This document shows positions 1,404 to 61,109 of a stretch of DNA of 64,000 nucleotides, piece after piece. Source of the DNA: a virus (taxonomy: Duplodnaviria > Heunggongvirae > Uroviricota > Caudoviricetes); the IMG/VR virus record IMGVR_UViG_3300048850_000049, positions 55,864 to 119,863 of that record; one strand, written 5' to 3'. Each line of letters opens with the position of its first letter. Position 1 is the first letter of the stretch. The notes beneath the pieces were generated by a model, which was not told the DNA's origin, searched no databases, and was given only the letters and a program-made list of their open reading frames with translations. The position numbers and the translations under genes are program-made.

Positions 1404-1988
1404 ATGAACGACAGACACGACCGGATGCGAGTGAAAGCCCGGAAGTATCTCGCGAAGAGGAAATCAATGTCTTATCCGATTAAAACGCGGTCGATCTCGC
1501 TCGACCATAGGGGCGGCACCAAGTCCTATCACCTCATGATTATTGAGGCTGCGAACGGGAATGCCGTCTTTATCAGTCGCTGGGGCAAGACCGGTCAGTT
1601 CGGCGAAATGAAGGTCGAAGAATACGACAGTCCTGCCAAGGCAATGAAGGCTTGGGAAAAGAAGGAGCGCGAAAAGACGCGAAACGGATACGGTCAGGCA
1701 GGTCCGGCGCGAGAAGGCCGCGCGGACACGTCTGACGAGTTCCCGAAGGCCGTCTCGCTGTCCATCTTCAACAAGATGGGTGCAAGTGCCGTCAAGCACC
1801 TCGACCCCGGCTTCGACACCGCAGGAATGCGTGAGGCTGATCCCGCCCAGTATGACGAGGAGACCGGCAGGAAGATCGATACGGCGCGCAAGGCTGACAT
1901 TAGCGAAGCGCTCGCGGCCGAAAAGGCTGCTTCTGAGAAAGCCGCTGCCGAGGCTTACGCCGACAATCCGATTTTTGGGAGGTTCTGA
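1404..1988 (+). CDS. WGR-domain protein; C-terminal PIFGRF tail
   Basis: RWGKTGQFGEMKVEEYDSPAKAMKAWEKKEREKTRNGY matches the WGR-domain pattern; ends ..NPIFGRF. Confidence 0.5.
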   Translation: MNDRHDRMRVKARKYLAKRKSMSYPIKTRSISLDHRGGTKSYHLMIIEAANGNAVFISRWGKTGQFGEMKVEEYDSPAKAMKAWEKKEREKTRNGYGQAGPAREGRADTSDEFPKAVSLSIFNKMGASAVKHLDPGFDTAGMREADPAQYDEETGRKIDTARKADISEALAAEKAASEKAAAEAYADNPIFGRF

Positions 1989-4873: not shown

Positions 4874-5974
4874 TCAATGAGCCCTCCTTCGCCGCATGTA
4901 TCTCACGACTTCGGCGAGGTCGATCTGCCCGCGTTCGATCATCCGGACGTAATTTCGGTAGTATCCGCCTGGATTCTTGATCTTCATCGGCCCCGCCTGG
5001 TCCGCGGAATAGATTTCAAGCACCACAAAGAAGGCCGCGGCCGCTCGCATCGGCCCAATTTTCTCGACAGCCTCATCCCAGGCACTCCGGTGTATCCCAA
5101 TCGCGCCTCGCAAACCGGCCGCGGCCGATAGAAGTTCTCTATCGTTGGTGATCGTGTCGGTGTAACTCATTGCATCAGGGCAGGCAGCGCACAAATCTGG
5201 CAAGTTGATTTCGGATTCATTATCTCTTTGCCGTTTGTCACAAGACTGGTCAGGAGAATCTTTGTTGTTCTCAATGAGACGGCAGTTTTTGCCGCCACAG
5301 GCGGCATTATATTGATCCTCAAGGGTAGTTTTCAGACTTTGCCATAGAGAAAGCACAGGCTCGACCGGCTGCGATGACGTTCTACGCGGGGAGAGGGCGC
5401 TCAATCGCTCAAATTCGATCGTGAGCGCGTTCATATCGATGTTCTGACCGAGTGCGTCAAGCGCGCCCAGAAGCTCCTGAGAAGCTCTCCTGCAGATCGT
5501 AATCTGATCGAACAGAGCCATCCGCGCTCGCTGCAACTCCCGGATCGCATCGGTGCGCGCCTGCAGCTCATCTTTACGCGCCAGGAGGGGGGAGAGATCG
5601 AAGCCATAGGCATCAAGAATCTGTCCCTGCTTTGAGCGCACAGCGAAACGTTTGCCATTGGCGCTGTCTCGTGCAAGCACGCATCCTGCTCGGATCAGTT
5701 CACCCACGGCATACCTGATCGCGCGGTCGGAGAGTCCCGTTCGGTCGGAAAGGAACTCGTTTGACGGCCAGACCAGGTAAAGCCCGTTGACCGGCTCGCG
5801 AAAGAACCCGACCAGCTGCGAAAGGATCGATCTTGCGGAAGGGCGCAGGCCAAGAGCAATGGCTGCCAAGTGCGCGCTTTCAAATAGATCCTTCTTGGTG
5901 CCGGCATCCTCCGGCACGTAGGTATCCGCTGCCGGCGCAACGCGGCGCCAGCCTGAATGTCCCTCAGTTCTCAC
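4874..5974 (-). CDS. RepC-like winged-helix replication initiator / DNA-binding protein
   Basis: WPSNEFLSDRTGLSDRAIRYAVGELIRAGCVLARDSANGKRF and AYGFDLSPL resemble RepC (repABC family) N-terminal HTH motifs as I recall them. Confidence 0.5.
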   Translation of the reverse strand: MRTEGHSGWRRVAPAADTYVPEDAGTKKDLFESAHLAAIALGLRPSARSILSQLVGFFREPVNGLYLVWPSNEFLSDRTGLSDRAIRYAVGELIRAGCVLARDSANGKRFAVRSKQGQILDAYGFDLSPLLARKDELQARTDAIRELQRARMALFDQITICRRASQELLGALDALGQNIDMNALTIEFERLSALSPRRTSSQPVEPVLSLWQSLKTTLEDQYNAACGGKNCRLIENNKDSPDQSCDKRQRDNESEINLPDLCAACPDAMSYTDTITNDRELLSAAAGLRGAIGIHRSAWDEAVEKIGPMRAAAAFFVVLEIYSADQAGPMKIKNPGGYYRNYVRMIERGQIDLAEVVRYMRRRRAH

Positions 5975-9366: not shown

Positions 9367-11643
9367 ATGAACCGCGATATCATCGAACTGCGCGAGGTAG
9401 TTCAAAAGCTCGTTCCTCTGCTTTCTGGTAAAGGGTTGACGGTCACGCAGCGTGGCAGTCAGGCATATGTTTCAACCAACCCTCGCACGAAGCAGCCTGA
9501 GACCGTCAACATTCCCAATATTCCTGACTCCGCCCCGCCTGAGTTCGTCCAGGCGATCCAGGGCTTCATCGATCACGAAGTCGGTCACGTCCTTCATACC
9601 GACTGGAACTTCTACGGCGGCAAGGGCGGAATGTCAGTCGCGGATCTGCAGGATCCGAAGCGCCGCGCTTTTATGAACACGCACAACATCATCGAGGACG
9701 TGATGATCGAGCGGGAGATGTGCAAGACCTTCCCTGGCTCGGCTCGCAATATCTCAAGCACCCGCAAGTGGTTCCTTGAAAAGATCACCAATGAGGCTCT
9801 CAAGGCTACCAAGGATCCCAAGGAGCAGTTCCGCTACCTGATCGTCCCGATGATGCGCGCCATCGGCGGGCATGAGGAAATGCAGGATTTCATGGACGAC
9901 GGCAAGTGGTGGACGAATATCTACGTCCAGGAGCTGCTCACCAAAATGAAGCCTGCGACCATCGAACTCCTCAAGACCTGCACGAACACGGAAGAGACGC
10001 TTGTCATTTCCGAAGAGGTCCACGCGATCATCATGCCTTCTGCTGCTCCCGAAGCTCCGGTTCCGCCCAAGGAAAAGGAAGAAAAGAAGAAGGATGAGAG
10101 GGATGAAAAGAAAAAGAAGGGCAAGTCTGAGGACAAGCCCGAAAAGAAGGCTGACGAGGGCGACGGTGACGGAGAGCGTGATCATGAGGACACCAAGCCT
10201 GATGAGGACGGCGACGGCGATGCCAAGGACGACGAGAAGGATAAGGATGAGGAAGAAGATGCCGGCGCTGATGCTGGCGATGATGATGGCGCCGAGAAGG
10301 AGTCCGATGAGGCGGAATCCGGAGACGATGACGGCGACACGGATACTGACGAGCCGAGCAAGCCCGAGCCGAAAAATGCGGCTTCTGACGACGATGAGGC
10401 TGGTGAGGATGAAGCAGCTGCGGCAGGCGACGACGCCGATGACGACGCGGCTACCAGTTCAGGCGCTTCTGGTATCGGAGCTGAACCCGGCAACGCAGGC
10501 GATGGTGATGAGAGCGACGGTGATGCGGAAGGTGGCAATCCGCCGATCCGCACCGAAGGCGCCGATGGTGGTGGTGTAGGCACGATCGACGGTGGAGATG
10601 ACCACGAACGCCAGGGAGGAGGAGGCGGTGTCGGCAACGAGTCTGCCAAGTCCTTGTTCGACTATGAGGATGACGACTTTGACGAGGTTGATATGTCCTC
10701 GCAGATTGCGATCAAGATCTCCGACGAAGCCGTCCTCGCGATGGATCCCAAGCAGTATCTCGTATTCACTCGCGAAATGGATCAGATCCAGCCGGTCGAA
10801 GTGCCCGAGAAGATGAACAAGTCTTGGGTTCCGGCTATGGAAGACGAAACTCGCCTGATGACCTCAAAGATGTCGAAGGACATCGAACGCGCAATGGCTT
10901 CACAGAGCCACGTCATCCGCACGCCTGGTCACAAGACCGGCAAGCTGCACGCGCCGTCCCTCTTCCGCGTAACCCAGGGCGATCCGCGAGTATTCTCGCA
11001 GCGCCAGGAACACGTTTCAAAGGATACGGCCGTCTCGCTTGTCGTGGACAACTCCGGCTCGATGGGCGGACCCAAGATGAAGCTCGGCATGATCGCCAGT
11101 TACGCCCTCTCCTCGACGCTCGACCGTGTGAAGATCGCTCATGAGGTGATCGGCTTCACGACCGGCGGATACTGGAACGGCGTTCCCGACTCGATCCGTA
11201 GGGCAATGGCTGACGACGCTGCCAAGGCGGGCATTAACTGGGATCGGATGACGCCGATCATCATGCCTATCTACAAGTCCTTTGAAGAACGCATCACTGC
11301 AACGGTGAAGGCGCGCTTCGCCTATATGATGAATGCGCAAGCTGGTCTCAACGGCAACGTTGACGGCGAGTCCCTGCAGTATGCGGCTGAACGCCTGCTT
11401 AAGCGGCCGGAGAAGCGCAAGGTAATGCTGGTTCTGTCCGACGGACAGCCGGCAGGTTCCCACAAGTCGGGCCCTCACCTCTCGCATGTGGTCAAGGATC
11501 TGGAGCGCTTCGGCATCGAATGCGTCGGAATTGGCATCCTGGATGACAGCGTGAAGAAGTTTTATCCGAAATACACCGTCCTTCGGACTGTGGAGGATCT
11601 GCCTGGTCAGGTCATGGCCGAAATCAAGAAGATCCTCATGTAA
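9367..11643 (+). CDS. cobT: CobT-like vWA-domain protein with a long acidic tract
   Basis: C-terminal MIDAS motif DNSGSM (vWA); roughly 200-aa D/E-rich low-complexity middle; HEVGH motif near the N-terminus; paired with a CobS-like ATPase as in phage cobST pairs. Confidence 0.6.
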   Translation: MNRDIIELREVVQKLVPLLSGKGLTVTQRGSQAYVSTNPRTKQPETVNIPNIPDSAPPEFVQAIQGFIDHEVGHVLHTDWNFYGGKGGMSVADLQDPKRRAFMNTHNIIEDVMIEREMCKTFPGSARNISSTRKWFLEKITNEALKATKDPKEQFRYLIVPMMRAIGGHEEMQDFMDDGKWWTNIYVQELLTKMKPATIELLKTCTNTEETLVISEEVHAIIMPSAAPEAPVPPKEKEEKKKDERDEKKKKGKSEDKPEKKADEGDGDGERDHEDTKPDEDGDGDAKDDEKDKDEEEDAGADAGDDDGAEKESDEAESGDDDGDTDTDEPSKPEPKNAASDDDEAGEDEAAAAGDDADDDAATSSGASGIGAEPGNAGDGDESDGDAEGGNPPIRTEGADGGGVGTIDGGDDHERQGGGGGVGNESAKSLFDYEDDDFDEVDMSSQIAIKISDEAVLAMDPKQYLVFTREMDQIQPVEVPEKMNKSWVPAMEDETRLMTSKMSKDIERAMASQSHVIRTPGHKTGKLHAPSLFRVTQGDPRVFSQRQEHVSKDTAVSLVVDNSGSMGGPKMKLGMIASYALSSTLDRVKIAHEVIGFTTGGYWNGVPDSIRRAMADDAAKAGINWDRMTPIIMPIYKSFEERITATVKARFAYMMNAQAGLNGNVDGESLQYAAERLLKRPEKRKVMLVLSDGQPAGSHKSGPHLSHVVKDLERFGIECVGIGILDDSVKKFYPKYTVLRTVEDLPGQVMAEIKKILM
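10040..10690 (+). repeat. Coding low-complexity D/E-rich tract (about 215 aa) inside the cobT-like gene
   Basis: EEKKKDERDEKKKKGKSEDKPEKKADEGDGDGERDHEDTKPDEDGDGDAKDDEKDKDEEEDAG... Confidence 0.8.
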
Positions 11644-11749: not shown

Positions 11750-13054
11750 ATGAACCAGGTAGTTGAAACTGGTGCAGTCACCGCTGCACCGGACGGGAAG
11801 ATTTTGTGCCATATCGATAACGTTCGCGTTCACTCGATCCAGTCGCACATCCAGAAAAACCATAAGGGCTGGACGATCGAAAAGTATCAGGCCGATTTTC
11901 CTGGTGAACCGATTCTGTCGGACACTGCAAAAACGCTGCTCGCCAAGCGTGAGCAGGAAATGAGCGCCGCGGCTAGTGCTGCGCCGGCCGCTGCATCAGT
12001 TCAGGCGCAGATGGTCGCCGACGCGACCGGCATGTCCGCTCCCCAGGTCATCGTCAATCAAGCGTTCTTCCACGATCTATTCGAACTTGGCGCTGCACCT
12101 TCTGCGCTCTCGACCAAGGGTCAGCCCATCCCGGTCAAGACGCTCTCCGGGCATGACAGCCTCTCGGCCGATTACCTGCCCGAGATCGACAAGGCGTATG
12201 TGTTCAACATTGATCTTCTCAAGAAGGTCATTATCGGCTTGGAACTGAATATTCCCTCCTATCTATGGGGCTATCACGGCACCGGCAAGACGACGCTCCT
12301 GCAGCAGGCTGCAGCGCGCACCCGCCGTCCGTTCATGCGCGTCCAGCATACGATCAATATGCAGGAGTCGGACGTTCTTGGTCAGTGGACCGTGCGTTCG
12401 CGGCCCGTTGAGGTGGAGCAAATCGACCAGACCGGTGTCAAGCACATGGTTGTTCAGCAGCAGTCCGTCACCGAGTTCCAGCTTGGACCGTTGCCGCTCG
12501 CGATGATCAACGGCTGGGTCTACTGCGCCGATGAATACGATTTCGCGATGCCGTCTGTAACTGCGGTCTATCAGCCGGTTCTCGAAGGCCAGGCGCTGAT
12601 CATCAAGGATGCTCCTGCACACTTCCGCAAGATCGTCCCGCATCCGAACTTCCGCTTCGTTGCAACCGGCAACACCAACGGCATCGGTGACGAAACCGGT
12701 CTCTATCAAGGCACGCTTGTGCAGAACGCAGCCAACTATTCCCGCTTCGGCATCACTGTCGAGGTCGAATACATGGAAGCGAAGATCGAACAGGCGATCC
12801 TCACCTCCAAGACCGGCATCGACGCGGCGAACGCCTCGAAGATCGTCAAGATGGCGAATGAGGTGCGCAAGATGTTCCGCGATGGCAAGATCACCATGAC
12901 GATCTCGCCGCGTGAGCTGCTCCGCTGCGCTTCGCTCGGGATCGCTTACGGCGGTAACTGGACGCTCGGTATGGAGCTCGCTTTCGCAAACCGTCTGTCG
13001 CGCGTCGATAAGAAGGTTGTCCAGGAATACATGCAGCGGGTGTTCGGATCTTGA
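11750..13054 (+). CDS. cobS: CobS-like AAA+ ATPase (AAA_5/MoxR type)
   Basis: Walker A GYHGTGKTTLL; follows the vWA partner directly; RBS AGAGGGAA. Confidence 0.6.
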   Translation: MNQVVETGAVTAAPDGKILCHIDNVRVHSIQSHIQKNHKGWTIEKYQADFPGEPILSDTAKTLLAKREQEMSAAASAAPAAASVQAQMVADATGMSAPQVIVNQAFFHDLFELGAAPSALSTKGQPIPVKTLSGHDSLSADYLPEIDKAYVFNIDLLKKVIIGLELNIPSYLWGYHGTGKTTLLQQAAARTRRPFMRVQHTINMQESDVLGQWTVRSRPVEVEQIDQTGVKHMVVQQQSVTEFQLGPLPLAMINGWVYCADEYDFAMPSVTAVYQPVLEGQALIIKDAPAHFRKIVPHPNFRFVATGNTNGIGDETGLYQGTLVQNAANYSRFGITVEVEYMEAKIEQAILTSKTGIDAANASKIVKMANEVRKMFRDGKITMTISPRELLRCASLGIAYGGNWTLGMELAFANRLSRVDKKVVQEYMQRVFGS

Positions 13055-17200: not shown

Positions 17201-17620
17201 GGCAATGAGGAAGATACGGGCGGCATCATGGGCTTCTCGATGTCAAACAACTCCGTCATCGAGGCGCTGGAAGAAAATAGCCTTGATAGAACGCATATTT
17301 ACTGGACGGCGCTCATCAAGCGTCCGAAGCGCGGCAAGCAGGTCACGCCTGACGAAATTGCGATGTATTGGCCGTATCTCGAAAAGGAGATCGAGATCCT
17401 GCAGCCGCCTATCATCGTGCTTCTCGGCTCGCAGACGGTTCGCCACTTCATGCCCGACTTCAAGGGCAAGGCGTCCGACATGGCCGGCAAGGTAGTCTAT
17501 TCGAAGAAGTATGACGCAAACCTGGTGATCGGCTTCTCGCCTGGCGAAATCTACCATGATCCGGACAAGCAGACGAACATGAATGAGGTCTTCTCCTCAG
17601 TTGCGGACATGCTGGCATGA
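14261..17620 (+). CDS. dnaE: DNA polymerase III alpha (compact DnaE) fused to a C-terminal degenerate UDG family-4-like domain
   Basis: N-terminal PHP (ILAARTDFSVGESIL..), GYGFNKSHSVEY polymerase core, HhH; C-terminal about 180 aa aligns to family-4 UDG (ISDAPGNEEDTGG, PIIVLLGSQ, GFSPGE) with GE->SD and HP->SP substitutions and no Fe-S cysteines. Confidence 0.8.
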   Translation: MHSILAARTDFSVGESILTTKFLIKNAVDAGAKAVAMTDTMSVTGMIDFTGKAKAAGLKPIIGVRLRLVDNPEWRPGDGEKKKDMPRPYFLTLYALKEAGIKAIFRLLTLANGASRFYYEPKLGFTDLYDELRAIEGDELAIVLGDAHSVLEHPDADEIVRNLSAEVTHLYAPLIPIDTPYYGRLNEIALRIIADTYAKPIIVRPAFYGQGEADTQEIMTAISDNHKITDGWFKSRHNRDMHVMSLTELVGQMKIAVQHLEKRGIVGAGAEFKQGLLNTGVLVAAVEYEWSKAEVSLPIMAPDEFAALLEECKKGWKIRFDAPVFGHQPTPAELSTVYKERLAYELQTLKRLNFSGYFLLVQDVVQFAKNSDILVGPGRGSVGGSLVAYLMGITECDPIRFGLLFERFINPDRIDLPDADLDFMSERRHEIFEYLVKKYGDARVAGVSNFGTLASASSIRDVGRVTNIPEKDYSVSKFVPKKNGQNIPLPDCRKAVPEIDAFANNYPAFWPIMERLEGTIRNFGQHAAGVVVGGVDLVERAVIERRKDGSVVCWDKRIVEDQGLVKMDILGLVTLDLIKLTLDYVRERSGKRVDISRIPLDDEKVLANFVKANTTAVFQFESGGMRRLLKELGSTGSITFEDITAATALYRPGPMESGMMDSFYLRKQGHETIEYDHPLMEPVLEETFGVIVYQEQVMKISQVIAGYSGAAADKLRKIMGKKLPEEMKKERQKFCDGCVATIACTEEWAGELFDKIEGFAGYGFNKSHSVEYTLISYQAMWLKTYHAVEFYAAALTLLKEEKLTGIIRDAKALGIDVSMPDINISTNRFEIATDARLVMPFQRIKGLSQKATDAIINARAAGPFKDKTDFLNRVEKRVCNVKVQGALDLVGSFARIEPGQVAANDPSRIKDQIELLPGLIAVHVPIDHELNRDKDTKVALGELVDEYRAAHGPAATVADGYPVKPFFGKEASAMVISDAPGNEEDTGGIMGFSMSNNSVIEALEENSLDRTHIYWTALIKRPKRGKQVTPDEIAMYWPYLEKEIEILQPPIIVLLGSQTVRHFMPDFKGKASDMAGKVVYSKKYDANLVIGFSPGEIYHDPDKQTNMNEVFSSVADMLA

Positions 17621-18243
17621 TGCCCCGGCCGGAACACTTTGTCCGGCTGGTGTCAGTGGAGCCGGAGAAGAAGACCCTGCTACAGAAGCTTGGAGATTTC
17701 GTCAGCGGGATCTTCAAGCCTGATACCGAGGCCGAAGATCGCCGCAACGCTGAATGGGCAAAGCTCCTAACGGCTAAGCAACCTGTGCCGCGGGCTCCTA
17801 TGCGAAGTCCGATGCTTATTCGGCCGCAGCAGGCGAAAATCTCAGGCAGTCCCACCAAGATTGGTTACGACGCCCCTCAACACCTGCCTGTCTGCGCAAG
17901 CGGAAACATCATTCTCTACGAGGACTTGGTTTTCGGAAGGTATTCAATGGAAGAATGGAACGACATGGAAGAGGAAGAACGCGAAGAGGTTCTCGAAGAG
18001 TGGAACGCCAACGTTGAAATGAGCGAACACGACAAGATTTCCAACCTCGCTACTTTCGGTATTCAGCCGCCCGTGCCTATCGATCCGCAAGAAGCTGCGG
18101 TTCGTCGTATGCACGAGAGGGCGGTTGCCAACAATCTCGCCCGCGACATGGAAGCCCACAAGAAGAAGCTGGAACTTGAGCTGGCAGAAGCCGAGGAGCG
18201 GGAGAAGCATTACACCGGCAACGCAATTTTCGGCGCGTTCTAA
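17617..18243 (+). CDS. Hypothetical protein with C-terminal AIFGAF tail
   Basis: ATG overlaps the dnaE stop (ATGA); ends ..GNAIFGAF. Confidence 0.45.
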   Translation: MMPRPEHFVRLVSVEPEKKTLLQKLGDFVSGIFKPDTEAEDRRNAEWAKLLTAKQPVPRAPMRSPMLIRPQQAKISGSPTKIGYDAPQHLPVCASGNIILYEDLVFGRYSMEEWNDMEEEEREEVLEEWNANVEMSEHDKISNLATFGIQPPVPIDPQEAAVRRMHERAVANNLARDMEAHKKKLELELAEAEEREKHYTGNAIFGAF

Positions 18244-18299: not shown

Positions 18300-18866
18300 A
18301 TGACGACTCCGACGACGGCCGACGCCGCAAAGGAAGTTACGACCTATCCGGTCAGGGACTTTCTCGACGCTCATCAATTGAAGAAGGATCTCGCCTTCTC
18401 TCCCAACAACCTGACGGATGCCATGATTCAGCAGGCGTCGATGTTCTCGCATTATGGCGTGCTTGCGGCCGACGCATCCCGTCAGGTCGACGTGGTGAAG
18501 ATGCTGCTTGAGAATACCGAGGCAGCAGTTTCCCAGATCATCCGCGATGAAGTGGCAAAGGCCGGCGAAAAGGTGACTGAGGCCGGAATCGCAACCAAGA
18601 TCGCCCGTCATCAGCGCGTCGTATCGATGAAGAAGGCTTTGAACGAAGCCAAGCGCATCGAAGCCATCGGCAAGACCGCAGTTGAGTCCTTCCGGCACCG
18701 GCGTGACATGCTGGTGCAGCTCGGGCTCATCAGCCGTGAAGAAATGAAGGGTGAGCTTCGGATCGGCGAAAAGTCGGCCCGTGAACAGGCGGCCGAGACG
18801 TCCAAGGAGCTTGCTCTTTCGCGCCTTGCCCGGAAGAACACCGTAAGCGAAAATTCTGACAATTAA
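18300..18866 (+). CDS. Hypothetical protein
   Basis: Preceded by the GCTATAA promoter motif and an RBS. Confidence 0.45.
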   Translation: MTTPTTADAAKEVTTYPVRDFLDAHQLKKDLAFSPNNLTDAMIQQASMFSHYGVLAADASRQVDVVKMLLENTEAAVSQIIRDEVAKAGEKVTEAGIATKIARHQRVVSMKKALNEAKRIEAIGKTAVESFRHRRDMLVQLGLISREEMKGELRIGEKSAREQAAETSKELALSRLARKNTVSENSDN

Positions 18867-19323: not shown

Positions 19324-20382
19324 ATGGCTCTTAGCCCCGAACTTAAGAAGATGGTCTCTGGCGCGAAGAATAAGTATTCTGGCGGTTCTGGAAAGACCAT
19401 CAAGCCCAAGGAAGGTCGCAACACCTACCGCATTCTGGCTCCGACCAGCGCCCAGGCTCCCTGGGTTCCTGCATCCGGTCAGTATTGGGCAGATCTTGGC
19501 GTTCACTGGATCAAGGCAGACGTAAACAGCAACAAGCCGCTCGTCGTCTGTGGCGACTGCGACACTGTTTATCAGCAGCCCTCCGTCCTGAACACCGCGA
19601 TCGAGATGGCGATTAACTCCGCTATCGATGAAGAGTCCAAGAAGCTCTACGAGGATTGGAAGGCTTCGAAGTCCGTCATCGTCAACGTGATCGACCGCTC
19701 GCTCGGTGAAGATCCGCAGGTTCTTGAACTGACGCCGACCACTTTCGGCAAGGTCATGGATCTGATCAACATCTACGACGACGCCGGCCAGGACATCACT
19801 AGTCCGCTTACCGGAACCGACATCATCGTGACCAAGACCGGCAAGGGTCTCAACACGAAGTATGACGTTGCCGTCTCGCCTGCCCCGAGTGCACCGCTTT
19901 CCGCGGACGTTCTCGGCCGCGTAACTGATCTGCACGCCTTCATTGCGCAGAACTACTTCCGCGGTGAAGAACAGAAGGCTCTGAACGCCATCGCCCAGAT
20001 TGCCGGCGTTGCTGTTCCTGCCCTGACCGGACCTTCCGGTGCGGCCGGTGTTCGCACTCCGACTGCTGCTCTGGCCTCTCCGTCTGCTACTGTTGCAGGC
20101 GCCCAGGTTGCAGCCGCTGTCGCAACTGCCCCTGCAGCTGTCGCTGCCGCCGCTGTGGCTCCGGCTGCCGCTGTTGCCGCTGCTCCTGCCGCAGAAGATC
20201 CTGCAATTGCTGCACGTCGCGCCGAAATTCTGCGTCGTCAGCAGGAAGCTGAAGCCGAGCTTGCCGCTCTGTCTCAGCCTGCAGTTGAACCTGCAGCTGC
20301 CGCGGCTCCCGCTGCCGGCATCTCCTCGCTGCCTGTTTCCGAACAGGACGCGATCCTCGCCGAACTCGATAACCTCGTGTAA
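19324..20382 (+). CDS. gp32-like ssDNA-binding protein with an Ala/Pro-rich insert and acidic C-terminal tail
   Basis: YRILAPTSAQAPW...GVHWIK..CGDCD..VYQQP...LYEDWKASKSVIVNVID resembles the T4 gp32 core (IRFLPSKNDEQAPF..H..C..C..; KEYSLVKRKTSYWANILVV); acidic C-terminus SEQDAILAELDNLV. Confidence 0.5.
   Translation: MALSPELKKMVSGAKNKYSGGSGKTIKPKEGRNTYRILAPTSAQAPWVPASGQYWADLGVHWIKADVNSNKPLVVCGDCDTVYQQPSVLNTAIEMAINSAIDEESKKLYEDWKASKSVIVNVIDRSLGEDPQVLELTPTTFGKVMDLINIYDDAGQDITSPLTGTDIIVTKTGKGLNTKYDVAVSPAPSAPLSADVLGRVTDLHAFIAQNYFRGEEQKALNAIAQIAGVAVPALTGPSGAAGVRTPTAALASPSATVAGAQVAAAVATAPAAVAAAAVAPAAAVAAAPAAEDPAIAARRAEILRRQQEAEAELAALSQPAVEPAAAAAPAAGISSLPVSEQDAILAELDNLV
19990..20340 (+). repeat. Coding Ala/Pro-rich low-complexity linker inside the SSB-like gene
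   Basis: PALTGPSGAAGVRTPTAALASPSATVAGAQVAAAVATAPAAVAAAAVAPAAAVAAAPAAE... Confidence 0.7.
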
Positions 20383-28512: not shown

Positions 28513-29007
28513 ATGGCAAAAGCAAAAGAGGACCTGAGCCCCGAGGCAAAGAGGATCATGGAAGAGATCGGCAACGAAGTCGTTGCGGCTCTGAAGGGTG
28601 AGTTCTTTGAGGTCGAAGGCGCGCCGATGTCGGTCGTCAAGTATGAGGATAACCGCATTCGTCAAAAGCCTCTCATGCCGACCTGGCTCTTTCAGTTCGA
28701 ATACGCCTACGTCGGCGGAATGGGCCGCATTCAGTTCGGTCTCTCGCCGGAAGACGCGCAGGAATACAAGTTCATCGAAATGAACCCGAAGGAGCTTGAT
28801 CGCGCGTTTCCGCTTGTCGGCGCAGCAGTCGCAAAGCACTACGGCGTTGAAGGTGAGAACCTGAAGATCCTGCTGGACGAAATCTTCGCCAAGCGCATCG
28901 ACACCGTGGCCGCTGCACAGGAGAAGGCGCGTGAAGAGGCTGCTGCATCCTACGAGGCAAATCCGATCTTTGGAGCCTTCTTAATTCCCAACTTTGGAGC
29001 CTTTTAA
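28513..29007 (+). CDS. Hypothetical protein with a tandem C-terminal NPIFGAF-LIPNFGAF tail
   Basis: Promoter plus palindrome upstream; RBS AGGAG; duplicated FGAF tail. Confidence 0.45.
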   Translation: MAKAKEDLSPEAKRIMEEIGNEVVAALKGEFFEVEGAPMSVVKYEDNRIRQKPLMPTWLFQFEYAYVGGMGRIQFGLSPEDAQEYKFIEMNPKELDRAFPLVGAAVAKHYGVEGENLKILLDEIFAKRIDTVAAAQEKAREEAAASYEANPIFGAFLIPNFGAF

Positions 29008-32654: not shown

Positions 32655-33062
32655 ATGACTGATGAAGAACTGGAGAGGCGCGGAAAGCAGGTGTTCGACA
32701 AGTTCAGCACCGCTGACAAGGACGCTCTCAAGTGGTTCTTGACCGGCCAGATCCAGAACATTCTCGCGAATGAACATGGCATCGGCGGAAAGAAGGATAT
32801 CGCCAGCCAGGTGGATCGCCGGGTTGAGGCACGGATCGCTTCATTCGCCAGCGACGACAAGCTGATGCAGCGCCTGGCTACGCTCCTCGCAAAGGATCGG
32901 CGCATCGACTTCGCCAAGCTCATCACAGACGCGGCCCGACACGAGGCACAAGACGCCATCAAGAAGGCTGCCGGCACTGCCGCAAGCCGCGTCAAGGTTC
33001 ACGTCTTCATAGAGCCGGATCCCAACGAACCGGCAGAAACCACCGCTTTTGGAGCATTTTAA
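32655..33062 (+). CDS. Hypothetical protein with C-terminal TAFGAF tail
   Basis: Promoter plus palindrome upstream; ends ..ETTAFGAF. Confidence 0.45.
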   Translation: MTDEELERRGKQVFDKFSTADKDALKWFLTGQIQNILANEHGIGGKKDIASQVDRRVEARIASFASDDKLMQRLATLLAKDRRIDFAKLITDAARHEAQDAIKKAAGTAASRVKVHVFIEPDPNEPAETTAFGAF

Positions 33063-55722: not shown

Positions 55723-55920
55723 CTATTCCTGGCTGATCGGGAAGACTTCTGCGCCGACGAAGAACGCCTCTCTCAATATCTGATCGAGGTTAACTTCGCT
55801 CGCCTCGAGAAACTGGACTACATCAAAGGAGTATTTCCTTTGCGCAAAGTGATGTTCCACGACATTAAGAACAGCAGCCCTCAATTCAGTCAGCTGCCCT
55901 TCAAATTCACACCTATGCAT
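55723..55920 (-). CDS. Small hypothetical protein, paralog of 54475..54684
   Basis: ATGCAT start with an AAGGAAAA RBS; shares a terminator with the convergent + gene. Confidence 0.4.
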   Translation of the reverse strand: MHRCEFEGQLTELRAAVLNVVEHHFAQRKYSFDVVQFLEASEVNLDQILREAFFVGAEVFPISQE

Positions 55921-57110: not shown

Positions 57111-57334
57111 GCGCCCGTCTGATCACAGAGATTGAGCGCCGGGCCAAGGCTCGCCCCAACACGGGCAAGCCTGCCTATGTGACCATCATCACCCAGTCTG
57201 GCGACTTCAAGGGCATCATTGGCAAGCTTGATACGGGCTCCGGCTATGTGGAGCTCGATTGCAGCTACACGTCCAGTGGAATCCTGCTAATTAACCTCGA
57301 CAAGATCGTCGCTGTGCGTCCGGGATGGTCCTGA
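57107..57334 (+). CDS. Hypothetical small protein
   Basis: ATGA coupling. Confidence 0.35.
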   Translation: MSARLITEIERRAKARPNTGKPAYVTIITQSGDFKGIIGKLDTGSGYVELDCSYTSSGILLINLDKIVAVRPGWS

Positions 57335-57888
57335 TGGCGCTAACCGAACTCTCTGAATGGCTCAACTTGGCAGACAAGCCGGGCTTCAGCGTTGGCGAGC
57401 TGGCGCCGTTCCTCGCCATGTCACGCGGCAACGGCAAGTCCACGTTCATGCGCGACTTCATGCAGGAGATAATCACGTCCGCAGAAGCCGAGCCTATCAA
57501 TCAAATCGTCGTCGGCACGCGCGGCATCCTTTCGATGATTGACGAGCTGCAGCCGGCCATCAAGTTTGAGCCTGACCTAATCAAGAGGTTCTCCGATCCG
57601 GATTGGCCGGCAGCGGACGTGACCGTCACTCTCGAAAAGCTCGACAAGAAGGATCCACGGCATCCTAACCCTGAAGCCGGCACCATTCGGCGTTTTTACG
57701 TGAATGCAAGTGGCCGTCGATCCAATCAGAAGAACAAGACGGCTGCGCTCAATCATGGCAAGCGAACGCATGAGCGCCTGGTCGCAGCCCTCGTCAAGGA
57801 TCGTGACGACAGGATCGCCGCTGAGAAGCGCGAGCTGCTGGAGCGTCACGCCTACCTCAACAGCTTACCAACCTTTGGAGATTACTGA
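57325..57888 (+). CDS. Hypothetical protein (ends ..LPTFGDY, a variant of the FGAF tail)
   Basis: Coupled ORF. Confidence 0.4.
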   Translation: MVLMALTELSEWLNLADKPGFSVGELAPFLAMSRGNGKSTFMRDFMQEIITSAEAEPINQIVVGTRGILSMIDELQPAIKFEPDLIKRFSDPDWPAADVTVTLEKLDKKDPRHPNPEAGTIRRFYVNASGRRSNQKNKTAALNHGKRTHERLVAALVKDRDDRIAAEKRELLERHAYLNSLPTFGDY

Positions 57889-59410: not shown

Positions 59411-59790
59411 AGCTGACACAAGCTGAAATGAATACGCTACGCCAATGCTGGCTTATGACCGAAGGCAAGGCATGGGAGCCCCGACGCGGAACAAATTCCA
59501 AGGGCATAAAACGATTGGTCGAAGCCGGATATATTCGTGTCGTTGACGGTCGTTGCGGATTTGAACTTCTCAAAGACGCAATGGTTGATTGGACCGAAGC
59601 GGGGCGCGCAGCGCTCGCCGCGTCGTCAGTTAAGCCGCTGGAGTTGTTCGATCCCAAGGACGAAGAAGCGATAAAGTGGATCACCGAGAACCTGTCCGGG
59701 TTGCGGCGCGATGACGGATCGATCGAATATACCCTCGTGGCCGTTGTCCGAGCCTTCCAGGCGGGCAAGCATGAGGCAGCGGACTCATGA
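59407..59790 (+). CDS. Hypothetical protein
   Basis: ATGA coupling. Confidence 0.4.
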   Translation: MKLTQAEMNTLRQCWLMTEGKAWEPRRGTNSKGIKRLVEAGYIRVVDGRCGFELLKDAMVDWTEAGRAALAASSVKPLELFDPKDEEAIKWITENLSGLRRDDGSIEYTLVAVVRAFQAGKHEAADS

Positions 59791-60323
59791 GAGGCGATAT
59801 CATTGTCCACGATATCTATACCTTGCCGGACGCAGTAACCACGCTGCAGGTGATCTCCATCGAGGATTCTTCTCTCAGCACGCCGCAGTTTTATGTCCGA
59901 TTGAAAGAGGGCGATGAATGTGCGGATGAACCGTTTGAGGACTATCCGCAAGCCTGTGCGCATTGGCGTAACTGCCTGCGTCAGATGGGTATTGTTGTTC
60001 CGTATCAGGCGCCGGTCGCCGAGATCAATCTTAAAGGCGAGATTGATGCCCAAGAGAAGACCGCGACTGAGGTCTACTACCACTACCATTCGCTTCTAGC
60101 GGCCCAGAGACAGCCCAATGACGAGGCGACCAGGATCCGTGACTGCATGATCCAGGATCCCGACTTTGTTCGCTTCGCGCAGGATATCCTGCTTATTGTG
60201 CCAGAGAAGGCCCATGACTGGATTAGTGCCTCAATGCGCGTGTGCTGCAAGAGGGTTGCCGCTCTCCAGCGGATGACAGAATTCAAGGCGCTCGAGGTCA
60301 TACCGGGTTTCGGCTCCTTCTGA
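59787..60323 (+). CDS. Hypothetical protein
   Basis: ATGA coupling. Confidence 0.4.
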   Translation: MRGDIIVHDIYTLPDAVTTLQVISIEDSSLSTPQFYVRLKEGDECADEPFEDYPQACAHWRNCLRQMGIVVPYQAPVAEINLKGEIDAQEKTATEVYYHYHSLLAAQRQPNDEATRIRDCMIQDPDFVRFAQDILLIVPEKAHDWISASMRVCCKRVAALQRMTEFKALEVIPGFGSF

Positions 60324-60415: not shown

Positions 60416-60826
60416 TTGAAAATGGTAAGCGTGCCGAACATCGAGCGCGTTATAGCGTCAATCAAGGGCGAACTGCCCGAGACGCAACACCTGGGGTTCA
60501 ACATGGGCGGCTATGTCAGCCGCACCAGCTTCAACCTTCCTGACCATTCCGGCCGCAACTGCGCCTGGGTTGGTTGTATCGCCGGTCACGCCTACACGCT
60601 CAGCACTGGTGAGCTGCCTGACACCGTAGCCAACACTCTGCCGGATCCGATCGACAAGATCGCAGGCGAGTTCCTTCAAATCGATGAGAACCAGGCGCGC
60701 GAACTCTTCTTCGACCTGCCTTCGTTCATCACCCTCGCATTCGTTCCGCAGAGTGTCGCCCTCGAGGTGCTTGAGCGCCTGAAGGAAGCTGGAACGATCG
60801 AGTGGGAGAAAGTTGCAAATGCCTGA
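60416..60826 (+). CDS. Hypothetical protein
   Basis: Promoter variant at 60351-60385. Confidence 0.4.
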   Translation: MKMVSVPNIERVIASIKGELPETQHLGFNMGGYVSRTSFNLPDHSGRNCAWVGCIAGHAYTLSTGELPDTVANTLPDPIDKIAGEFLQIDENQARELFFDLPSFITLAFVPQSVALEVLERLKEAGTIEWEKVANA

Positions 60827-61109
60827 TCTCCAGCCAGGTTGGACCCAGATGAAAGGTATCTCCGGCGCTGGCTGGGATATCTGGCTGGGAACGGGTCCTC
60901 ACATGCCGGAAGGTTCACGCTTCGCCATGTTTCGCCGGCGGATCGCGGATGAGGAGACCTACACCAAGGGCCTCACCTACCCGACGCTGACTACGGCCGA
61001 GGAAGCGCTCACGCAGATCAAGCACCAGTTCCACCTGGGCAAATACCAATTCGACGACCTCTTTCCCAATGAAGTCGTTATCGACCATCCCTACTTCGGA
61101 GCCTTTTGA
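60813..61109 (+). CDS. Hypothetical protein with C-terminal HPYFGAF tail
   Basis: Ends ..VIDHPYFGAF. Confidence 0.4.
   Translation: MQMPDLQPGWTQMKGISGAGWDIWLGTGPHMPEGSRFAMFRRRIADEETYTKGLTYPTLTTAEEALTQIKHQFHLGKYQFDDLFPNEVVIDHPYFGAF

Follow-up and report, generated by a model that had tools for sequence, protein, structure and literature searches.

The C-terminal tip of the bacterial single-stranded DNA-binding protein (SSB; DDDIPF) and the acidic tails of T7 gp2.5 and gp4, which have a terminal Phe, sit on a disordered or extended spacer. A pocket recognizes the final aromatic residue of these peptides along with the free carboxylate, by which replication and repair proteins are organized. 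In bacteriophage T4, gp43, gp55, and gp33 bind gp45 through interchangeable hydrophobic C-terminal clamp-binding tails on divergent connectors (PMC2988020). The FGDF motif (more generally FGxF), which is used by alphavirus nsP3, USP10, and ICP8 of herpes simplex virus, is a ligand of the NTF2-like domain of G3BP. Its two Phe residues and its Gly are all indispensable; they occupy a hydrophobic groove, which the Gly enables both rings to enter (PMC4450067). The tail of the eukaryotic/archaeal ribosomal stalk P-protein (..SDDDMGFGLFD) is a terminal-region peptide on a flexible spacer that docks several different factors (PMC3280276). Here, we compare these systems with a C-terminal peptide encoded by a tailed virus (Caudoviricetes; IMG/VR record IMGVR_UViG_3300048850_000049). 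A stretch of 64,000 nucleotides (positions 55,864 to 119,863 of the record), which is about half of the genome and is called the window in the following, was analyzed, and negative results on open reading frames (ORFs) cover the ORFs of this window. The window phage is of the Rhizobium type, with a nucleotide identity of around 77% to V1VFA-S, B1VFA, and RHph_X66.

Seven window proteins, all of them small, encoded among the early or replication genes, and otherwise unrelated, end in [FY]-G-x-[FY]-COOH. This shared terminal peptide is a real observation and a stronger one than had first been noted in a sequence-only reading of the DNA. We put the probability at roughly 0.55 that the tail serves as a tethered docking peptide whose single receptor co-evolves with it and is probably encoded by the element itself.

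The terminal motif

The window gene set comprises 84 plus-strand genes, and 439 non-gene ORFs served as control. At the extreme C-terminus of the 84 gene products, FGx[FY] was observed seven times, where 0.014 would be expected by amino-acid composition (Poisson P = 2.5e-17), an enrichment of about 500-fold, whereas internal copies occur at chance level (4 versus 3.1 expected, one of the four being the tandem copy in the product of 28513..29007). As internal copies are at chance and none of the 439 non-gene ORFs carries a terminal FGx[FY], the enrichment is confined to real gene termini. In V1VFA-S, for which counts are based on the deposited annotation of 157 coding sequences (CDSs; 127 non-structural and 30 structural; loci L001-L003), the tail was found on 6 of the 157 versus 0.075 expected, and all six are non-structural. 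A chance origin of the tails is ruled out by the terminal enrichment in both genomes.

The sequence-only reading had cited six gene ends (1988, 18243, 29007, 33062, 57888, and 61109), which are all present as described, but its total of five to six carriers was too low, as a seventh at 60323 (..VIPGFGSF) had been overlooked. It was right that the carriers share no other similarity, since all-versus-all BLASTP among the seven gave none beyond the linker and the tail, and the lack of enrichment at C-termini over internal positions, which it had named as refuting, does not apply within the window. Hidden paralogy of the carriers was considered and rejected: the sole BLASTP match (1404 versus 28513) fell from E = 5e-5 to 0.07 after 12 residues had been trimmed.

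The core of the motif is [FYW]-G-x-[FYW]-COOH, often with N-P before it and a Tyr farther upstream. A census of 48 tails from 15 genomes, with Ω-G-x-Ω-COOH (Ω = F/W/Y) built into the scan definition, found only F, W, or Y at positions -3 and 0 (the last residue), where aliphatics never replace the aromatics, and N at -6 in 28 tails as well as P at -5 in 31. Gly at -2 is present in 48/48 tails by this definition, and within families in 25/25 and 12/13. Examples, given as the last 12-15 residues, are EAYADNPIFGRF and AYADNPMWGTW.

Conservation and concerted variation

In all seven families, the tail is kept in the orthologues of V1VFA-S and/or B1VFA at identities of 30-63%, while flanks and codons drift; NAIFGAF, IPNFGAF, and NPTFGAF form one such set and PIFGRF, ELYGRF, and DLYGRF another. 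All 25 homologues of the WGR-domain carrier keep A-Y-x-x-N-x-x-[FY]-G-x-F, i.e., Y(-9), N(-6), G(-2), and F(0), and the linker before their tail is just 30-60% conserved. A layout of linker plus tail is present in every carrier family, the linker being a charged helical spacer of 25-35 amino acids (aa); in the AlphaFold2 (AF2) model of the 28513..29007 protein, a globular domain and a long helix, both predicted with confidence, precede a low-confidence terminal peptide. The linkers are net acidic or of mixed charge, not basic.

The terminal aromatic is uniform inside all 11 genomes that have at least two tails. It is of the F-type (once Y) in the window, V1VFA-S, B1VFA, and locus L016 and of the W-type in the Klebsiella element described below, contigs 2918987250 and 3300020594, and loci L062, L014, L020, and L022. 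This uniformity within genomes was matched in none of 200,000 permutations, also when the clade of the window was treated as one unit. The x position is typical of the genome as well, being S/T in W-type genomes, M/I/L in L016, L018, L019, and L023, and mostly A in the clade of the window. Orthologues of the WGR protein differ in type between two lineages, being F-type in the first and W-type (..ANPNWGSW) in the second. Unrelated proteins thus shift in step, which fits one shared, co-evolving reader.

Aromatic rings could alternatively act on a non-protein target, either by stacking on single-stranded DNA or damaged bases or by anchoring at the membrane interface. The exclusive use of F/W/Y and never L/I/M would suit such stacking or interfacial partitioning, and the carriers include DNA-associated WGR and ExoX-C-like modules. 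However, DNA or lipid targets give no reason to expect that W or F, and likewise the x residue, are chosen in concert across a genome, the strictly terminal position and the upstream Y..N-P point to a shaped protein pocket, and the charge of the linkers does not suit such targets, which makes this explanation quite improbable.

Breadth of the lineage

Distant relatives, whose loci were picked from viral contigs with the RecA/UvsX-like gene as anchor, carry the tag as N-P-x-W-G-x-W, W-G-x-F, or [FW]-G-x-W on up to 3-4 consecutive genes. When 2.9 million viral contigs were scanned for the DNA form of N-P-x-W-G-x-W-stop, 114 matches were obtained, 56 of which end an ORF of at least 40 aa. Marker genes of the lineage adjoin 52 of these 56 in-ORF matches versus 4 of the 58 matches outside such an ORF, and the tailed gene of the in-ORF matches occupies one of two syntenic slots, Rad50-RuvC or primase-ligase. 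Many of the NPxWGxW matches are Klebsiella non-mobilizable plasmids of around 110 kb. Among them, the complete Klebsiella element pRHB30-C05_4 shows a gene organization as in the Rhizobium phage and carries two tails, ..ENPLWGSW and ..ANPIWGTW. By these matches, the tag appears virtually exclusive to one lineage of ~110-kb phages and phage-plasmids with alpha- to gamma-proteobacterial hosts. As it is nearly confined to this lineage across both host groups, its receptor is likely encoded by the element.

An SSU5/pKpn phage-plasmid supergroup has been described in enterobacteria, and a relationship between the Rhizobium phage RHEph10 and pLM21S1, a phage-plasmid of Sinorhizobium, has been noted (PMC7969092). 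We infer that pRHB30-C05_4 belongs to this supergroup, given its size, its host, and the genes that it contains. The window encodes a RepC-type replication initiator at 4874-5974 (-), and an 88%-identical RepC is found on a related 118-kb contig of Phyllobacterium myrsinacearum. The window phage itself is probably a phage-plasmid because of this RepC and the gene order that it has in common with the ~110-kb SSU5/pKpn-like plasmids of Klebsiella.

In genomes distant from the window, small ExoX-like C-terminal (DUF3820-type) proteins with a W-type tail are encoded at 11394-11732 of L020, 5151-5516 of L022, and 12724-13068 of L066; in L020 and L022, their genes lie just 3' of the UvsX-like gene. 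Furthermore, L061 (10168-12015) and L016 (17701-19171) hold runs of 3-4 mutually dissimilar tailed genes (e.g., NPLFGTW, NPLWGTW, KRWGTW, and RPLYGTW), which suggests a hotspot for the build-up of tailed accessory genes.

The seven carriers

All carrier genes lie on the plus strand. The gene at 1404..1988, between the primase and the ligase, encodes a WGR-domain protein of 194 aa (Pfam WGR, E = 1.9e-12); its tail (..AY-AD-NPIFGRF) is encoded by codons 1965-1985, and the stop codon (1986-1988) forms a TGATG overlap with the next gene. Directly 3' of DnaE, a protein of 208 aa (17617..18243) ends in ..HY-TG-NAIFGAF (18220-18240). Its orthologues end in ..IPNFGAF and ..NPTFGAF at 39% identity, and no relatives of the protein were found in Pfam, PHROG, or PDB. 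In B1VFA, the tailed gene after DnaE is followed by an annotated 52-aa ORF (103921-104079, i.e., 3921-4079 of L006) that consists only of a highly acidic, disordered-looking segment and the tail ..PYADNPAFGAF; it could represent a stand-alone minimal tail that regulates the receptor or competes for it.

Between the Rad50-like and RuvC-like genes, 28513..29007 encodes a protein of 164 aa with two tandem tails (..ANPIFGAF-LIPNFGAF), namely NPIFGAF at 28960-28980 and IPNFGAF at 28984-29004, followed by the stop codon at 29005-29007, and overlaps the RuvC-like gene by TAATG. Its 12 homologues all bear a single tail (..NELFGAF, ..LPTFGAF, or ..NPNFARF), for which reason 28960-29004 looks like a duplication. 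At the nucleotide level, about 24 nt comprising motif, Shine-Dalgarno (SD) sequence, and stop-start junction appear to be duplicated, with TTTGGAGCCTT occurring twice, the first stop having been lost, so that translation continues into the second copy. The AF2 model of this protein shows an alpha/beta domain (residues 10-110), a helix (117-149), and a tail with a predicted local distance difference test score below 50; a structural neighbor of the model was not found.

The 135-aa protein encoded at 32655..33062, after the alpha subunit of ribonucleotide reductase (RNR) and glutaredoxin, ends in ..ETTAFGAF (33039-33059); the gene is annotated as CDS in V1VFA-S, and the orthologues end in ..APNFGTF and ..APDFGKF (54-57% identity). 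Three further carriers are encoded in the early region. The protein of 187 aa at 57325..57888 has the tail ..SLPTFGDY (57865-57885) and a TGATG overlap with the next gene. Its PTFGDY ending had been noted correctly but set aside as a variant; with orthologues that end in ..HPEFGGF and ..HPAFGGF (31% identity), it is a true member of the set. The protein of 178 aa at 59787..60323 ends in ..VIPGFGSF (60300-60320) and its orthologues in ..LSTFGAF and ..LSNFGAF (43-45% identity). Finally, the protein of about 98 aa at 60813..61109 ends in ..DHPYFGAF (61086-61106), again with a TGATG overlap, and its B1VFA orthologue in ..RHPNYGTF (51% identity). When two tailed proteins and two tail peptides were compared by sequence with PDB, no match was obtained.

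Overlap with Shine-Dalgarno sequences

The DNA repeat TTTGGAGCCTT before TAATG hinted at a purely nucleotide-level origin, in which the tail would be the by-product of a GGAG SD sequence and the stop-start overlap of the downstream gene, read in frame as F-G-A-F. Indeed, four of the seven window tails lie at TGATG/TAATG overlaps with GGAG or GGGAGG at SD distance, and among the 48 tails, SD-type Gly codons are present in 12/22 coupled versus 1/26 uncoupled ones (Fisher P = 1.4e-4). However, the tails ending at 18243 (TTC GGC GCG TTC) and 60323 (TTC GGC TCC TTC) have neither an SD sequence nor a coupled gene, an SD-like Gly codon is missing in 35 of the 48 tails of the 15 genomes, and among the coupled gene ends of the window that bear an SD sequence, 14 of 18 encode unrelated peptides. 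W-type tails are written TGG GGN NNN TGG, and an SD sequence leaves the flanking Phe or Trp codons unexplained. The codon data, together with the control junctions, thus rule out an artifact of ribosome-binding site (RBS) and overlap, and this origin can be discounted almost entirely. By the same data, the synonymous freedom at the Gly codon is used by the RBS, which did not create the motif.

In front of a coupled gene, the Gly codon in the tail shows dual coding, as GGA-G or GGG-AGG doubles as SD sequence; examples in the window are 1977-1982, 28996-29001, 57877-57882, and 61098-61103. Tails without a coupled gene mostly use GGC, GGT, GGG, or a GGA that is not followed by G.

Comparison with known docking systems

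Like the T4 ligands of gp45, the tails are short hydrophobic peptides at the extreme C-terminus of unrelated proteins with divergent connectors, and a T4-like module context is found here too. In contrast to T4, no gp45-like or DnaN-like gene was detected among the window ORFs. The T4 tails are hydrophobic and acidic without an invariant Gly or an aromatic-only rule, and they are carried by polymerase and sigma factor instead of small accessory proteins.

With FGDF, the tails have the F-G-x-F core in common, together with the tolerant third position and the occurrence on unrelated proteins, there with one partner. FGDF is also duplicated near the C-terminus of nsP3, like the tandem copy at 28960-29004. 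On the other hand, the partner of FGDF is a eukaryotic host factor, and that motif works internally or N-terminally, whereas the tag described here is strictly terminal. FGDF moreover prefers Asp at x and downstream acidic residues, whereas x is A/S/T here and N-P and Tyr are conserved upstream. The resemblance is one of convergence, not of homology. As the tag is strictly terminal, unlike FGDF, the free carboxylate would presumably be read as well, as in the pockets for the SSB tip.

The SSB tip and the T7 tails differ in that one hub bears the tail and many partners bear the pockets, and in that their tails are strongly acidic; the tails of the window are not acidic and are borne by non-SSB proteins. 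The stalk P-protein resembles the carriers in an Ω-G-x-Ω near the C-terminus and differs in the domain of life, the machinery, the acidic context, and the trailing Asp, so that the likeness is an analogy only. A literature search with the motif strings and for phage C-terminal docking motifs returned no description of the tag, only the FGDF and ribosomal-stalk analogies.

Candidate receptors

In the mechanism that we propose, the motif (Y-x-[DE])-N-P-x-Ω-G-x-Ω-COOH would be presented on a charged helical spacer of 25-35 residues, and the invariant Gly would allow both aromatic rings, along with the free carboxylate, to fit into a pocket or groove of a common receptor. Docking would bring accessory modules of small size (WGR, ExoX-C-like, and orphan folds) to the T4-like replication and recombination machinery. 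The tailed genes are surrounded by genes for a primase, an ATP-dependent ligase, a MoxR-VWA pair, a sigma factor, DnaE, a gp32-like SSB, FEN, a RecA/UvsX-like protein, Mre11/Rad50, and a RuvC-like resolvase; further neighbors encode RNR, glutaredoxin, thymidylate synthase, and dUTPase as well as rIIA/rIIB, a DnaQ-like exonuclease, NAD-salvage enzymes, and an SPFH protein. Receptor candidates were drawn from the conserved non-structural core that is common to members of the lineage. We tentatively rank the gp32-like SSB first, the UvsX/UvsY-like proteins or DnaB-primase/DnaE second, and Mre11-Rad50 or a MoxR-VWA pair third.

The gp32-like SSB (19324-20382, +) consists of an OB core, an Ala/Pro/Val-rich low-complexity linker of about 100 residues, and an acidic amphipathic tip. 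It ends in ..SEQDAILAELDNLV, the tip being DAILAELDNLV, which is kept in distant relatives as D-x-[IL]-L-x-[DE]-L-[DE]-x-[LV] and which we take to be reminiscent of the C-terminus of T4 gp32. The gene at 18300-18866 (+) is a highly conserved 'hypothetical' with 334 database homologues and no Pfam family. Its model is a long helical hairpin, and T4 UvsY accounts for each of the top 19 PDB matches (probability 1.00; target template-modeling scores of 0.65-0.82); with this match, a full gp32/UvsX/UvsY/gp46-47-like recombination set surrounds DnaE. Modeled as a possible hub, the UvsY-like protein informs the context but lends no support to tail binding. A CobT-like VWA protein (9367-11643, +) and a MoxR/CbbQ-type AAA+ protein (11750-13054, +) are encoded directly 5' of sigma factor and DnaE, and this MoxR-VWA pair, also kept in the Klebsiella relative, is a speculative candidate for the tail receptor.

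A universal host hub has also to be considered, i.e., the beta sliding clamp, which the phage DnaE would need, or the host SSB. The phage has DnaE and a DnaQ-like exonuclease and no recognizable clamp or clamp loader, one tailed gene lies directly after dnaE, and C-terminal hydrophobic clamp motifs are common (PMC2988020). Nevertheless, the tag is restricted to its lineage and not common to other phages of these hosts, and a concerted F-to-W switch would be needless for a clamp pocket that is highly conserved. The clamp-binding patterns QL[SD]LF and QLxLxL do not fit the 48 tails, which lack a conserved Gln, have Gly where an aliphatic residue is expected, and use aromatics only. Unlike the tips of SSB, the tails are not acidic, and those tips act as ligands and not as receptors. 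A host clamp or SSB is thus an improbable target. The sequence-only reading had suggested a phage hub such as a clamp, the SSB, or the polymerase, for which the window gives no support: no clamp gene was detected, the tails show no Q/aliphatic pattern, and the gp32-like SSB has a different acidic tip of its own.

The broader proposal of a common docking peptide is supported indirectly by several features (a strictly terminal position, conservation, a spacer helix, and co-variation of the aromatics), whereas the specific hubs that had been suggested are not. Some points weigh against it. The tree fits only one or two F/W switches and hence few independent events, and the concerted variation could equally follow a host factor that differs between hosts. 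Neither a clamp nor a clamp loader was detected by Pfam among the 84 window ORFs or by PHROGs among the conserved unknowns, a clamp annotation is likewise absent from V1VFA-S, B1VFA, and the Klebsiella element, and no PDZ-like or NTF2-like/SnoaL-type domain was found by Pfam in the window ORFs. Moreover, protease adaptors such as SspB use the same layout of domain, linker, and terminal peptide.

A second terminal tag

Besides the aromatic tag, AA-COOH is overrepresented at gene ends. It was found on 14 of the 84 window genes versus 0.9 expected (P about 1e-12), which end at 2536, 4064, 21446, 22572, 23872, 27718, 29582, 34315, 40018, 44840, 50412, 51453, 55419, and 58100. In V1VFA-S, 27 of the 157 CDSs (around 17%) end in AA versus 1.8 expected (P about 2e-22), comprising 26 of the 127 non-structural and 1 of the 30 structural genes. 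FEN, the UvsX-like protein, and the RuvC-like protein keep the AA end down to 33-45% identity, with varying residues before it, and so, for the most part, do Rad50 and ligase. No enrichment of AA ends was observed in the Klebsiella relative or in a small host background sample of 42 CDSs of the Rhizobium etli plasmid p42d (1/42). We presume that the AA-COOH tag resembles ClpXP signals of the ssrA/CtrA type.

This second tag bears on the question of whether the aromatic tail is a degron for a host AAA+ protease (Lon, ClpAP, or ClpXP) or a tether of an SspB-XB-like adaptor that times the turnover of early and middle proteins. The tail is strictly terminal, aromatic, and present only on non-structural proteins, the globular-linker-terminal peptide layout equals the three-part architecture of SspB, the ssrA-like AA-COOH stands alongside on many proteins (27/157, conserved in orthologues), and the F/W differences could mirror different hosts. 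Yet, the Ω-G-x-Ω tails are unlike the (L/A)AA-COOH degron of the ssrA/ClpX type, and the conserved element of around 10 residues (Y..NP.ΩG.Ω) on a dedicated long spacer goes beyond what a C-degron typically needs. In the viral-contig scan, other phages, among them those that share the host groups, had virtually no W-type tag, aromatics are never replaced by aliphatics, and the Klebsiella relatives have kept the aromatic tag but not the AA enrichment. The XB peptide of SspB is unrelated (basic/aliphatic), and 6-8 different 'adaptors' per genome would be unusual. Taken together, a degron or adaptor tether seems rather unlikely, and we favor the docking peptide.

The two tags may conceivably form a two-tag C-terminal addressing system for the non-structural proteome, although we regard this as distinctly doubtful. 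The Ω tag would tether small adaptors or accessory proteins to a ring or AAA+ machine, which may be the MoxR-VWA pair of the element, its UvsY ring, or host ClpX, and AA would mark enzymes for scheduled delivery, remodeling, or destruction; the enzymes so marked may be FEN, the UvsX-like protein, Rad50, the RuvC-like protein, ligase, the DnaQ-like exonuclease, and others.

Significance

If such an addressing system were true, the phage would encode its own proteostasis or assembly code for the replication factory, which might also safeguard the plasmid-prophage state. In any case, the AA tag raises the question whether these elements program the turnover of their own proteins. If the aromatic tail is a docking peptide, it would reveal an interaction network so far hidden in a large and little-studied lineage of siphoviruses and phage-plasmids that encode DnaE, which spans from rhizobial phages (V1VFA-S, B1VFA, and the pLM21S1-type) to ~110-kb Klebsiella plasmids with SSU5/pKpn-like gene organization. 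The tag offers a way to approach the function of 6-8 orphan proteins per genome, for which it predicts one receptor, and it may serve as a cheap annotation signature for members of the network and as a candidate portable tether for engineering. The difference between F-type and W-type tails would then be a natural specificity switch in which the co-evolution of motif and pocket can be studied.

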